Positions 13,540 to 42,924 of a DNA stretch of 64,000 nt are shown in pieces. The notes below the pieces were generated by a model. It was not told the DNA's origin and ran no database searches. It saw only the letters and a program-made list of their open reading frames with translations. The position numbers were made by a program, and so were the translations under genes. Origin of the DNA: Candidatus Latescibacterota bacterium (GTDB lineage: Bacteria > Latescibacterota > UBA2968); NCBI GenBank assembly GCA_965204745.1, contig OZ242010.1, positions 4,992,001-5,056,000 of the forward strand, given 5' to 3'. How positions within the stretch are numbered: the first letter of the stretch is position 1; each line of letters begins with the position of its first letter.

Positions 13540-13770
13540 CATCCCTTGTATCTTTGGGCGAGCACGGGGCATCGCCCAAAAAGGTGAGAGGTGAGAGGCA
13601 AGACGGGAGAAGACCTACACTCACTGATCGCTTTTGAACGGGGTATCGTCAGTTGTACCCCTTTTGTGCCTTTTGTGTTTTTGAACTGGCTGTCGCCAGT
13701 TGTACCCCGCTCGTGGCTAATCGCCTTTGAACGGGCTATCGCCAGTTGTACCCCACTCGTGGCTAAACTT
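13540..13770. repeat. Composite intergenic repeat (GTAG-type REP, heptamers, 3 copies of a ~30-bp unit, 9-mers)
   Basis: gggcgagcacggggcatcgccc REP, then gagaggt/gagaggc/aagacgg heptamers, then 3x (t)ttgaacgggctatcgccagttgtacccc variants. Confidence 0.7.
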
Positions 13771-38342: not shown

Positions 38343-39326
<984 letters not shown>

Positions 39327-39329
39327 CCA

Positions 39330-39549
39330 CAAGAGGCGTAAGAGGCAAGACGCAAGAGGCGTAAGAGGCAAGACGCAAGAGGCGTAAGAGGCAAGACGCA
39401 AGAGGCGTAAGAGGCAAGACGCAAGAGGCGTAAGAGGCAAGACGCAAGAGGCGAGAGGCGTAAGAGGCAAAAGGCAAGAGGCAAGAGGCAAAAAGCGTAA
39501 GAGGCAAGACGCAAGAGGCAAAAAGCGTAAGAGGCAAGAGGCAAGATAC
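39330..39549. repeat. Heptamer tandem-repeat array left of IS110
   Basis: caagagg/caagacg heptamers with cgtaagagg units in a ~23-bp higher-order period. Confidence 0.9.
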
Positions 39550-39561
39550 TCTCTTAAAAGG

Positions 39562-40569
39562 TCAAGGGGTTTTCGGGGTGATTCGATAGAATTTTTCGCC
39601 CTCAAAATCTTGGTCATGGCGCAACATGCCCCAGATCGAATGGAGCAACTTTCGCATCACCGCAACGATAGCCTGCAAAGGTTTCTTGCCGCGGGCGATG
39701 AGTTGGTCATAGAAGGCTTTGACATGGCCTTCGTGTCTGATGGCCACCCAGGCAGGCATATAGAGGGCATGGCGGAGGTACTTATTCCCGGTTTTCGAGA
39801 TGCGTCTTTGTGGATTGGCGGTTCCGGATTGTTTGGGTTTGGGATCCAGGCCTGCATGTGCGACCCACTGGGGCGGTTGCATCTCCTCTGGCAAAAGGGT
39901 CAACTCGGCCAAGAGCCGCAAGGCACTCGTTTGCGCGATGCCAGGCGTCGAGCAGAGGCGTTGGTAGGCACGCTTGAGGGGCTCATCGTGCAAAACGAGA
40001 TCGAGGGCTTGGCTTTCCAAGTATGCAATCCGGCGTTTGAAGTGTCGAATATTCACCTGAATATCGCGTGCGATGAGACGTGTGCTGCGGATGTGGTAGC
40101 TCTGCGCGTGGTTGCGGCTCTGTTCGCGGATGATCTCCTGCTTGAGTTGGTCAATGCGTCTGGTGAGGGCTTGCAGTTGAAGCCGTTGCTCGCTCGGCGC
40201 TTGCCAAGGCACAAAAGGCATGCGCTCGGCATAGTCGAGGATCAACAACGCATCCTTCGCATCCGTCTTCGCCCGTTGCATGCAGGCTTGGGCGTACTTG
40301 CTCATCGCTTTGGGATTGACGACCATGACCTTTGTGTGGCGATGCCGATGCAAGGCCAAGGCCACCCCCAAACTGTAAAGCCCGGTCGCTTCGAGGCACA
40401 CAGAGACCATGTGCCCGCCCTTCGTGAGCCACTTCAGCAACCGCTTATGCGCTTGGGGATCATTGGCAAAGGTCGCTTGCATGACAGCTTGTCCGGGTCT
40501 GGACAGGGCAACGGACAACGTGCGGGCACTGACATCAATGCCGGCAAAAGCGGGGTGAGATTTCGACAT
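39562..40569 (-). CDS. IS110-family DEDD recombinase/transposase
   Basis: GIDVS, CLEATG and KTD..DA (DEDD), PGI, QSG (catalytic Ser), GNKYLR and AVMRKL; RBS aggagg. Confidence 0.95.
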   Translation of the reverse strand: MSKSHPAFAGIDVSARTLSVALSRPGQAVMQATFANDPQAHKRLLKWLTKGGHMVSVCLEATGLYSLGVALALHRHRHTKVMVVNPKAMSKYAQACMQRAKTDAKDALLILDYAERMPFVPWQAPSEQRLQLQALTRRIDQLKQEIIREQSRNHAQSYHIRSTRLIARDIQVNIRHFKRRIAYLESQALDLVLHDEPLKRAYQRLCSTPGIAQTSALRLLAELTLLPEEMQPPQWVAHAGLDPKPKQSGTANPQRRISKTGNKYLRHALYMPAWVAIRHEGHVKAFYDQLIARGKKPLQAIVAVMRKLLHSIWGMLRHDQDFEGEKFYRITPKTP

Positions 40570-40599
40570 GGGGGCCTCCTGTGATGAGGGGGTTGTAAG

Positions 40600-40827
40600 G
40601 GATCTGGTGCGCGCTCGGGGTCGCGTCCCGACCATTGACGCCAAGTCTACCGGTCTTGTATATGCAGCCTCAAGGGGCTTAGATACTCTTCGGCATAGAC
40701 CCGGCGGTCGGGGGGCCTATCTTACCTACAAGGTCATCGCCTTCAAGAGGGGCCGGCCTTCCCCGAGCCGGGCATCAAGATGGCTTATCTCGATACGAGG
40801 GCGCAACTCCTAATTAACCCTTACTTC
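40600..40827 (-). ncRNA. Predicted IS110 bridge RNA (ends approximate)
   Basis: Segments matching the target and donor junctions occur in LTG-RTG-LDG-RDG order on the recombinase strand (see findings). Confidence 0.65.
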
Positions 40828-41105
40828 CAAGATACAAGAGGGGAGAGGCAAAAAGCGTAAGAGGCAAGACGCAAGAGGTGAGAGGCAAGACGCAAGACGC
40901 AAGACGCAAGAGACAAGACGCAAGAGACAAGAGGGGAGAGGGGTGGTCTTCTCCCGTCTTGCCTCTCACCTCTCACCTTTTTCGGTGGTCTTCTCCCGTC
41001 TTGCGTCTCACCTCTCACCTTCTTTAGGTGGTCTTCTCCCGTCTCGCCTCTCACCTCTCACCTTTTTCGGTGGCCTTCTCCCGTCTTGCCTCTCCCTTCT
41101 CACCT
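40828..41105. repeat. Heptamer repeat array right of IS110 (direct, then inverted blocks)
   Basis: caagacg/caagagg/gagaggc, then four ~47-bp units of ggtggtcttc-tcccgtc-ttgcctc-tcacctc-tcacc. Confidence 0.85.
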
Positions 41106-41123
41106 TTTTTAAGGAGATTGAAT

Positions 41124-42179
41124 ATGGCACGCATTGGACGCGCCGCGGTAATGAGCGGCGAAAAATTTGAAATCCGCGAATATCCCGTTCCCGACCCGGA
41201 ACCGGGATCCATTTTGCTCAAACAAGAACTCGCGGGCATCTGCGGCACGGACCTGCACAACTGGGAATACCAGCGGTTGCAGGGCGAAATCATCCTCGGG
41301 CACGAAAACGTGGGCATCATCGACAGCATGGGCGCGGGTGTGGAAACCGATTATCTGGGCAATCCCATCGCGCCCGGCGACCGCGTGCTCTTCGCGCCCG
41401 GCACCAATCGCGGCGCGTACGGTTTTTTGCAAGCCGAAGAAGACCCGTACTTGCGCGGCGGGTTTGGCGAATACATTTATTTGTGGAACCCGGACACGGT
41501 GGTGCTCAAGACCGACATGCCCGCCGAAGTCGCGGTTATCACCGAGCCGTTCACCATTGGCGTTCACGGCGCGATGCGGTCGGGCCTACAATTTGGGGAT
41601 ACGGTCGTCGTTCAGGGTTCGGGCGCGATTGGCCTGCTCACACTCGTCGCGGCCAAAGTCAGCGGCGCTGGCAGGCTCATCATGGTCGGCGGCCCCAAAG
41701 GCAGGTTGGAATTAGCCAAACGCCTGGGCGCAGATCTCACTATCGACATTGCCGATGTACCCGATCCGGAAGAACGCACCAAAATTGTGCGCGAGAACAC
41801 GCCCCGCAACGAGGGGGCAGATGTCGTGTTTGAATGCGCGGGATTTTTGCCGGCCATCCCCGAAGGCGTGACGTTCTTGCGGCACAGCGGCACGTACGTC
41901 GCCATGGGGCATTTCGTCGATGTGGGGTCTTTTGACTGCAATCCCAATCAGATGTTCATGCGCCGCAACCTGCGCCTCGAAGCCGTGTGGGCGAGCGCCC
42001 CCGAACACTTTGTGCGCGCGCTTCCCATTCTCGAGCGCAATGAATACGCCTTTGCGGACCTCGTCAGCCACACCATCCCACTCGACCGCGTGGCCGAAGG
42101 CTTCAACGCGCTACACAGCGGGTATCGCCTCGACGACAAAGACGCGATCAAAATTGCGGTCAAAGGCGGGTTGGCGTAA
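41124..42179 (+). CDS. Zinc-binding (MDR family) dehydrogenase
   Basis: GICGTD, LGHE, G.GAIG and ADVVFECAG; lacks the structural-Zn Cys cluster. Confidence 0.9.
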   Translation: MARIGRAAVMSGEKFEIREYPVPDPEPGSILLKQELAGICGTDLHNWEYQRLQGEIILGHENVGIIDSMGAGVETDYLGNPIAPGDRVLFAPGTNRGAYGFLQAEEDPYLRGGFGEYIYLWNPDTVVLKTDMPAEVAVITEPFTIGVHGAMRSGLQFGDTVVVQGSGAIGLLTLVAAKVSGAGRLIMVGGPKGRLELAKRLGADLTIDIADVPDPEERTKIVRENTPRNEGADVVFECAGFLPAIPEGVTFLRHSGTYVAMGHFVDVGSFDCNPNQMFMRRNLRLEAVWASAPEHFVRALPILERNEYAFADLVSHTIPLDRVAEGFNALHSGYRLDDKDAIKIAVKGGLA

Positions 42180-42219: not shown

Positions 42220-42924
42220 ATGATTGGATTTGATACGCTCAAGGCGGCGATGCGGTTGCAGGATGAAGCCGGCTTTGATGAACGACAAGCGCGGGCCTTG
42301 GTGACCACCTTTGCCGAAGGGATCGGCGAGGATATGGCGACTCGGGAAGGGTTGGAGAAAACCGAGGCAACTCTGCGGGCTGATATCGTGTCTTTGCAAA
42401 GCGACACGCAGAAGATGGAAATGACCCTGCACGGCGAGATCGTGTCTTTGCGGAGCGACATGGAGAAGACGGAAACGACGCTGCGTGGGGAGATTGAAGC
42501 CCTGCGGAGTGACATGGAGAAGATGGAAACGACACTGCGTGGGGAGATTGAGGCCCTGCGGAGTGACATGGAGAAGATGGAAACGACACTGCGCGGCGAC
42601 ATGGAGAAGATGGAAACGGCGTTGCGTACCGAGATCATGTCTTTGCGGAGCGACATGGAGAAGATGGAAATGACCCTGCGTGGAGAAATTGAAGCCCTGC
42701 GGAGCGACATGGAGAAAATGGAGACGAGGCTGCGCGGTGAGATTCAAGAGGTTCGCGGCGAGGCTGAGTCTTTGCGGCGTGACATGGATGAAATGGAGAC
42801 GAGACTGCGTGCCGAGTTGCGGGCATTTGAACTGCGGATGACGATCAAGTTGGGCGGCCTGCTCGTGCTAGCTGTCGGTTTGATGACGATGATCGACCGC
42901 CTGCTCGGTCCGGCGGCTCCTTAA
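42220..42924 (+). CDS. CCDC90/DUF1640-like coiled-coil membrane-anchored protein
   Basis: FDTL....L..AGF...QA.A head, MAT neck, 18-aa repeats (LRGEIEALRSDMEKMETT), and ELRMTIKLG followed by a C-terminal TM helix. Confidence 0.8.
   Translation: MIGFDTLKAAMRLQDEAGFDERQARALVTTFAEGIGEDMATREGLEKTEATLRADIVSLQSDTQKMEMTLHGEIVSLRSDMEKTETTLRGEIEALRSDMEKMETTLRGEIEALRSDMEKMETTLRGDMEKMETALRTEIMSLRSDMEKMEMTLRGEIEALRSDMEKMETRLRGEIQEVRGEAESLRRDMDEMETRLRAELRAFELRMTIKLGGLLVLAVGLMTMIDRLLGPAAP

Follow-up and report, generated by a model that had tools for sequence, protein, structure and literature searches.

How does an insertion sequence come to stand, copy after copy, at one kind of junction between short tandem repeats? 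The question is raised by a 64,000-nucleotide (nt) stretch of the genome of an uncultured Candidatus Latescibacterota bacterium (assembly GCA_965204745.1, contig OZ242010.1, positions 4,992,001 to 5,056,000), hereafter the window, in which an IS110-family element lies between two arrays of heptamers. A first-pass annotation, made from the letters of the window, had proposed that the element carries a bridge RNA programmed against this heptamer family. Comparing the copies within the genome and in related genomes, we hold it about 90% probable that this is an autonomous IS110-group insertion sequence which works like IS621, its bridge RNA aimed at a junction of the heptamer arrays. The proposal is borne out in that the predicted target loop is complementary to the repeats and that heptamer-type 12-bp sites hold 52 of 52 full-length copies in the genome.

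What we show below is the anatomy, complementarity, covariation, site occupancy and a consensus fold; the production of the RNA, the formation of a promoter on the circular form and the chemistry of recombination we infer. The 5' non-coding end would encode a bridge RNA with two internal loops. Its target loop, made up of a left target guide (LTG, CCCCU-CU-U, sense) and a right target guide (RTG, AGGUA-AG, antisense), would specify the 12-bp sequence CCCCT-CT-TACCT, with TGCCT tolerated by a G-U pair; such a site would be one particular junction between two CCTCTYN units. The donor loop, with its left donor guide (LDG, AGAGUAU-CU) and right donor guide (RDG, AUACA-AG), would specify the joined ends of the element, ...AGAGTAT, core CT, TGTAT.... 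The DEDD/serine recombinase would then exchange strands at the CT core, leaving CT on both sides and no further duplication.

Guides and target sites change together

The genome, a single 5.48 Mb contig that we call G000 in comparisons with its relatives, contains 65 matching pieces by blastn, 52 of them full-length, and all IS110-type recombinase matches genome-wide belong to this one element family. About 37 copies are at least 99% identical and the remainder are at approximately 96%, 95% and 89%, the left end being identical in 34 copies. Since the 52 full-length copies have 52 distinct flank pairs, with both sides differing, they represent separate insertions. Read in the recombinase sense, every copy takes the form ...CCTCT-TGTATCTTGG...GAGAGTAT-CT-T(A/G)CCT..., with CT at both junctions in 52/52, a left target consensus of CCCCT and a right target consensus of T[AG]CCT. 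Contigs carrying the element come from source runs that include some labelled sponge metagenome; the public runs listed for it include no RNA run.

The rule by which these flanks can be compared with the RNA is that of IS621, taken from PMC11208160, which, like PMC11208158 and the other experimental reports drawn on here, is represented by extracts. Under this strand rule the LTG has the same sense as the top strand of the target and the RTG is antisense, the LDG and RDG treat the donor likewise, and each pairing takes in the core. The LTG equals the left flank at all five pre-core positions in 43 of the 52 copies, and the subfamily LTGs CGCCU, UGCCU and UCCCU..C change jointly with their flanks. 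On the other side, the RTG variants AAGUA, AGGUG, AGAAA, AGGG and ACGUU shift together with the right flanks, and a U of the RTG pairs with the G of TGCCT sites.

Four guide classes are present in G000. The main class (45 copies) spells CCCCT-CT-TACCT, and its sites give Watson-Crick matches at 4.82/5 positions on the left and 4.42/5 on the right, 38 of the 45 being perfect when wobble is allowed. The CGCCU/AAGUA class stands at sites of the form CGCCT-CT-TACTT, 3 of 4 of them perfect, and the one UCCCU-CU-C/AGGUG copy stands at TCCCT-CT-CACCT, matching 10/10, with the base right after the core altered in both guides. Related genomes carry elements with other guides. In G016, whose left end is 86% identical, the guides UCCUC or UCCCC with AGAAA accompany the non-heptamer sites TCC(T/C)C-CT-TTTCT, and in G018 (left end 78% identical) CGCCU and AGGG accompany heptamer junctions of another kind, YRCCT-CT-CCC. 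The element of G036, a genome of a different family, has guides UGCGC-AU and ACGUU and adjoins TGCGC-AT and CT-AACGT, while a Gemmatimonadota copy and a copy on a Salinibacter plasmid both have the RTG CCGUU beside AACGG.

Taken over nine guide classes from four genomes, guide-site agreement, scored by Watson-Crick matches only, is 0.87 within a class and 0.54 across classes; of the 362,880 ways to permute these classes, only 3 reach the observed agreement, a frequency that overstates independence because the classes are related. The covariation of guides with targets, which the first-pass annotation had named among its checks, is found. At the level of sequence, variant copies with changed guides occupy matching changed sites, and the elements of sister genomes appear aimed according to their own guides.

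Occupancy of heptamer junctions

Perfect sites, CCCCT-CT-TACCT, are occupied in 20 of 25 instances and empty in 5. The G-U sites, CCCCT-CT-TGCCT, hold insertions in 17 of 82 instances, leaving 65 empty, and TACCT-CT-TACCT is occupied at 4 of 87 (83 empty). No insertion is found at the commonest junction, TGCCT-CT-TGCCT, which is present in 241 copies. Occupancy declines as pairing weakens, from perfect to G-U to mismatched sites. Perfect and G-U sites together account for 37 of the 45 main-class copies, and for 70 of the 4475 heptamer-type junctions that are empty (odds ratio 291).

The supply of such junctions differs among genomes. Runs of three consecutive CCTCTYN units number 750 in G000, 329 in G018 and 0-5 in each of the 39 other relatives searched; G016 has a single such match and no heptamer arrays. 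Heptamer-aimed guides are found only in the two array-bearing genomes, G000 and G018. Of the 52 insertion sites in G000, 47 have two or more units within 28 nt on at least one side and only 16 have them on both, so many copies stand at the edge of an array.

The predicted bridge RNA

An alignment of 20 left ends from four genomes was folded with RNAalifold. Without constraint, the program predicts two stem-loops in succession, each having an internal loop around a short distal hairpin, with all four guides located in these loops. A structure built by hand on the same alignment has 91.3% of cells paired, in comparison with 31-45% after the partners have been shifted by 1-3 columns. Of the four pairs that show compensatory changes, three belong to the donor-loop basal stem. 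The LDG is conserved in 19 of the 20 aligned sequences, apart from single changes. By the handshake rule given in the extract of PMC11208158, the AUA that follows the RTG can pair with TAT, the three bases that close the right end. With E values up to 1 allowed, an Rfam scan of 39000-41500 matched nothing in the left end; the sole matches were weak and microRNA-like, lay on inverted arrays (40872-41013) and were judged spurious.

Much of this RNA had been anticipated. The IS621-type order LTG-RTG-LDG-RDG in the 5' non-coding end stands, as do two of the four segments that the first-pass annotation picked out, 40727-40718 being the RTG with three handshake bases and 40689-40681 the LDG, which matches the right end plus core. 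A third segment, 40658-40654, overlaps the RDG, whose true extent is 40655-40661. The two internal loops that had been foreseen are likewise predicted here, each with two of the guides; the segment then proposed as LTG falls in a predicted hairpin arm.

The promoter of this RNA may lie in neither end alone. Two boxes read from the sequence, a putative -35 in the right end and a -10-like hexamer in the left end (Table 1), would stand about 18 nt apart on the circle, and TTGAC or TTGAA is found at the equivalent place in G016, G018, G036, L086 and the Salinibacter element. Scanned for promoters and terminators, the integrated copy showed no terminator and, in its left end, no consensus promoter. 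The putative promoter would form only when the ends are joined, in agreement with the junction promoter of IS110 elements described in PMC11208160.

Alternative explanations and the crossover position

Might the recombinase protein alone recognise the site, the complementarity of the non-coding end being incidental? Subfamilies with different guides do differ elsewhere too (89-96% identity), so that co-variation of the protein is conceivable. However, in all nine guide classes the changes coincide precisely with the loop positions expected under the pairing rule and are on the correct strands, the tolerance of G-U is what a model of RNA-DNA pairing predicts, and homologues are experimentally RNA-guided (PMC11208160); we consider recognition by protein alone very unlikely. 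The association could also have arisen after insertion, by expansion of arrays around existing copies or by homologous recombination spreading copies between arrays, and the arrays are indeed variable as well as abundant, as the 750 three-unit matches attest. To this we would give almost no chance: the junctions are base-precise in 52/52 copies and have a single orientation relative to the repeat, the flanks diverge beyond about 12 bp, many copies are at an array edge rather than within an array, and the same element family is site-specific in G016 and G036, where there are no arrays.

An alternative of another kind accepts RNA guidance and places the crossover differently. GTATCTT is duplicated at both junctions, providing two candidate CTs 7 bp apart, and one copy alone therefore cannot decide which is the crossover. 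The first-pass annotation chose the inner CT, within the 'caagatac' that it correctly noted at both junctions (39542-39549 and 40828-40835), so that the empty target would be caagatac between repeat units and the LTG would be 40799-40792. This 8-bp direct repeat is truly present, and the sequence of a single copy cannot discriminate. Yet in the 89% subfamily the left side of all six copies reads GTATGTTG; the end there is TGTATGTTG and the inner CT is absent, and the right junction retains GTAT-CT. Left-end TGTATCTT is kept in relatives with unrelated, non-heptamer targets, the ends reading TGTATCT in G016, G036 and the Salinibacter plasmid and TGTATGTTG in an Acidisarcina plasmid (the contig of the Gemmatimonadota copy begins inside the left end, and its terminus is not readable). 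Moreover, the empty target expected for the inner CT, CTTGTATCTT[AG]CCT, occurs 2 times in the genome, as compared with 70 empty copies of the plain junction CCCCT-CT-T[AG]CCT, the RDG matches CT-TGTAT 7/7, and the LTG that an inner crossover would need is replaced in G018 while the end of the element is unchanged. Already contradicted on these grounds, an inner crossover deserves hardly any credence.

Given the ends of the 89% subfamily, the ends of the relatives, the empty-target counts and the fit of the guides, the sequence places the crossover at the outer CT, which adjoins the repeat unit, and makes the 'caagatac' of the right junction part of the element. An empty target would then read, in the recombinase sense, CCCCT-CT-T(A/G)CCT, a plain junction of repeats. 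With the crossover set one 7-bp repeat too far in, the empty target, the circle junction and the LTG of the first-pass annotation were incorrect, and its ends, 39542-40835, were misplaced around an element that is itself real: the 52 copies give 39546-40836. The guides fit the outer CT alone. The segment at 40799-40792 is not a guide; it overlaps the 5' arm of a predicted hairpin and shows no covariation with the flanks. The presence of TGTATCT beside repeats was also considered as an excision scar and rejected, the expected scar being nearly absent inside arrays (2 sites).

Several observations weigh against bridge-RNA targeting as we have set it out. The copies and genomes are related, and the statistics overstate their independence. 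Imperfect sites hold 8 of the 45 main-class copies, two of which stand at CCCCT-CT-CCCGT with three mismatches in the right half, and in G018 the right half matches at only 2.89/4 positions on average. Most stems hardly vary, so that structural covariation is thin and the invariant pairs are uninformative. The hairpin ahead of the target loop forms in G000 and G016 and is not kept in G018, where it is broken (77.9% of cells paired); RNAalifold gives a structure without it. Among contigs over 39000-41400 from four public runs, none of which spans the element because they break inside the repeats, no circle junction or empty allele was seen. The few element-skipping joints in these contigs have sides of 21-32 nt inside repeats, are not assignable to a locus and are evidence in neither direction. 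Finally, the copy at 602796 of G000 has guides that fit its own site poorly. That site fits the guides of another subfamily 10/10, and since the donor ends are common to all subfamilies and bridge RNAs act in trans (PMC11208160), it is a reasonable inference that this copy may have been mobilised in trans by the RNA of another copy.

Relation to known systems

The 335-residue product of the element matches Pfam DEDD_Tnp_IS110 (PF01548, 1.2e-24) in its N-terminal, RuvC-like DEDD part and Transposase_20 (PF02371, 4.8e-20) in its C-terminal part, in keeping with the IS110 recombinase that the first-pass annotation placed on the minus strand. The long 5' non-coding end, the absence of terminal inverted repeats and a short core alone repeated at the junctions conform to the architecture of the IS110 group. 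The IS1111 group belongs to the same recombinase family and is also RNA-guided, through a seekRNA encoded 3' of the gene; in the element described here, by contrast, the gene is preceded by the long non-coding end with all four guides in it. Among solved structures, the best match is the ISCro4 transposase (PDB 9t56, 7.6e-40), a comparison of protein only, and the transposase of IS621 follows at 5.8e-36. The composite active site named in the structure paper (PMC11208158), Asp, Glu, Asp, Asp and Ser, aligns in full with IS621 chain 8wt6_A, the numbering offset of that chain being our own deduction.

The resemblance to IS621 of Escherichia coli, as described in the extracts of PMC11208160 and PMC11208158, goes beyond the homologous recombinase with its aligned active site. 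Shared features are a bridge RNA, here predicted, 5' of the gene, the order and strand rule of the guides, a CT core, a left donor of 7 nt, handshake bases that follow the RTG, and a target that is a repeated non-coding sequence; the right end also has a putative -35 box, as in IS621. In IS621, however, that target is a repetitive extragenic palindrome (REP) of 7+2+2 organization, read by a nine-base LTG and a four-base RTG, whereas here it is a tandem heptamer-array junction of 5+2+5 organization, and the host is an uncultured, Latescibacterota-like one whose genome carries 52 copies. ISPpu10 and ISPpu9 of Pseudomonas putida are likewise IS110 elements that insert into multi-copy intergenic repeats; the extracts describe a hybrid promoter on the circle of ISPpu10 and a hitch-hiking module that uses the transposase of ISPpu9. 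Their targets are REPs or stem-loops, whereas no requirement for a stem-loop in the target is evident here.

Two further IS110-family elements, each represented by a single copy, are on the plasmids pSR118 of Salinibacter ruber (protein identity 52.5%) and pACPOL3 of Acidisarcina polymorpha (42.2%). Both share the left end TGTATCT or TGTATGTTG and the right end AGAGTAT. They differ from the element described here in their targets, which are non-repeat, and in the AT core of the Salinibacter element. The guides of the pSR118 element match its flanks at 4/5 (LTG) and 5/5 (RTG) positions; for pACPOL3, the LTG alone was compared and matches 9/10. A literature search found no paper that pairs IS110 with heptanucleotide repeats, although the supplementary target tables of PMC11208160 may hold such targets, and none on Latescibacteria with tandem repeats and insertion sequences.

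Beyond the single locus, these copies offer a natural series for bridge-RNA targeting, with near-identical recombinases and at least five guide pairs, each at sites spelled by its guides. REP palindromes are already known as natural targets of the IS110 family; these copies, from an uncultured lineage, would add microsatellite-like heptamer arrays. Pairs of guide and target could serve as ready test cases for the 5+2+5 split, for G-U tolerance and for action in trans between subfamilies.

Hairpin repeats carrying left-end sequence

The window contains five occurrences of AAGATACAAG, at 13545, 17531, 24679, 40829 and 51934, where shuffles expect 0.01. The places other than the element had been put forward as further candidate target sites. 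They are instead the left boundary of a hairpin family, matching the left end of the element (core plus right donor half) and not the target loop, and their right half does not fit the RTG. Genome-wide there are 285 occurrences of TGTATCTT; besides those of the element, 103 are followed by the hairpin YGGGCGAGCACGGGGGCATCGCCC and nearly all of these are preceded by CT. The hairpin family YGGGCGAGCACGGGGGCATCGCCC begins CT-TGTATCTT, which is exactly the core of the element and its left-end sequence.

The motif CTTGTATCTTNGGNC is found 93 times in G000, 105 times in G016 and 202 times in G018, and 0-2 times in each of the other 37 genomes, so that the genomes rich in it, at about 100-200 hairpin repeats per genome, are the three same-genus genomes with the element. 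Shared descent of these three could explain the association. The hairpin repeats were considered as two-ended miniature elements, and in that form the idea is not supported, as no right-end-like sequence closes the units: AGTATCT occurs only at the right ends of the element (55) and inside its own guide (55), plus scattered chance matches. The left boundary of the hairpin units is sharp and the right boundaries are variable. In G016, the bases before the CT of these units do not fit the LTG of that genome.

A broader role for the recombinase can be imagined, in which it shapes intergenic repeats beyond its own copies. The hairpins may be hitch-hiking modules moved via the right-donor half-site alone, the bridge RNA may have been re-aimed to the abundant short repeat of each host, and the perfect sites of G000 may be close to saturated; we regard this whole reading as unlikely. 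Half-site hitch-hiking, if true, would explain the sharp left and ragged right boundaries. Two leads, both from extracts and used as leads only, are a preprint in which a single half-site can suffice for IS621 recombination and the hitch-hiking module carried by ISPpu9. Hairpin repeats with the left end of the element may bear on half-site recombination.

Features of the locus and its surroundings

The coordinates of the features are collected in Table 1. The element begins TGTATCTTGG and ends GAGAGTAT in the recombinase sense, and its 267-nt non-coding left end (40570-40836) lies upstream of the gene, the right end comprising 16 nt only. As the first-pass annotation had it, the element lies between heptamer arrays. 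On one side it neighbours a gene for GDP-mannose 4,6-dehydratase and on the other a gene for a zinc-type dehydrogenase.

Table 1. Features of the IS110-family element and flanking arrays, in window coordinates (TRF, Tandem Repeats Finder; MFE, minimum free energy)
Feature	Position	Strand	Remarks
IS110-family element without flanking core copies	39546-40836	minus	1291 bp; boundaries from 52 full-length copies
Recombinase gene	39562-40569	minus	335 amino acids; AGGAGG upstream of ATG
Core CT, left junction	40837-40838	minus	follows left target half CCCCT at 40839-40843
Core CT, right junction	39544-39545	minus	then right target half TGCCT at 39539-39543 (G-U type site)
Predicted bridge RNA	40626-40810	minus	both ends approximate; MFE fold z = -3.47 versus shuffles; RNAalifold and pair counts
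Rejected first-pass LTG	40792-40799	minus	
Target-loop basal stem, 5' strand GGCC (predicted)	40755-40758, pairs with 40714-40717	minus	RNAalifold; pairs kept in 19-20 of 20 sequences
LTG CCCCU-CU-U (predicted)	40745-40752	minus	same sense as target top strand: 5 nt of left target, core and one base
Target-loop distal hairpin AAGG-CGAUGA-CCUU (predicted)	40730-40743	minus	four pairs kept in 20/20 sequences; invariant, hence no covariation
RTG AGGUA-AG plus AUA (predicted)	40718-40727 (RTG 40727-40721, handshake 40720-40718)	minus	reverse complement CT-TACCT
Donor-loop basal stem, 5' strand (predicted)	40691-40705, pairs with 40640-40652	minus	13 pairs, 3 compensatory, 90.9% of cells paired; RNAalifold agrees
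LDG AGAGUAU-CU (predicted)	40681-40689	minus	9/9 to last 7 nt of right end plus core
Donor-loop distal hairpin AGCC-CCUUGA-GGCU (predicted)	40666-40679	minus	four pairs, 100% of cells paired, one compensatory pair
RDG AUACA-AG (predicted)	40655-40661	minus	antisense of CT-TGTAT (core plus first five left-end bases), 7/7
Putative -35 box TTGACC in right end	39560-39565	minus	overlaps stop codon; read from sequence
-10-like TATCTT in left end (begins TG-TATCTT)	40829-40834	minus	read from sequence
Left heptamer array (caagagg, caagacg and similar units)	39330-39545	plus	TRF (reports 39330-39546)
Right heptamer array	40837-40934	plus	TRF, period 7, 14 copies (reports 40835-40934)

Two other places in G000 were noted. 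At G000:C1:2459528 there is a miniature remnant with the body of the element deleted, in which CT, two TGTATCT units and the first left-end bases are followed directly by the last right-end bases. At G000:C1:1121595-1124171, a tandem pair from different subfamilies (96% and 100%) stands 20 nt apart, each copy at its own CT of adjoining repeat units.

The arrays of G000 are strand-asymmetric, with 256 three-unit matches in the forward and 494 in the reverse orientation. Other short tandem families in this genome include CTGACCA/CTGACTA heptamers and CCTTTTGTG units, and with a second hairpin (GAACTGGCTGTCGCCAGTTGTACC) they form mosaic intergenic blocks. Beside the element, 40942-41111 holds four copies of a 42-bp unit of reverse-oriented heptamers (GGTGGTCTTCTCCCGTCTTGCCTCTCACC...), which together with the array at 40835-40934 make up long inverted repeats. 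Further along, the open reading frame at 42220-42921 (plus strand) contains many near-identical repeats of approximately 11 residues (MEKMETTLRGEIEALRSD...) and matches a coiled-coil family, CCDC90-like (2.3e-17).

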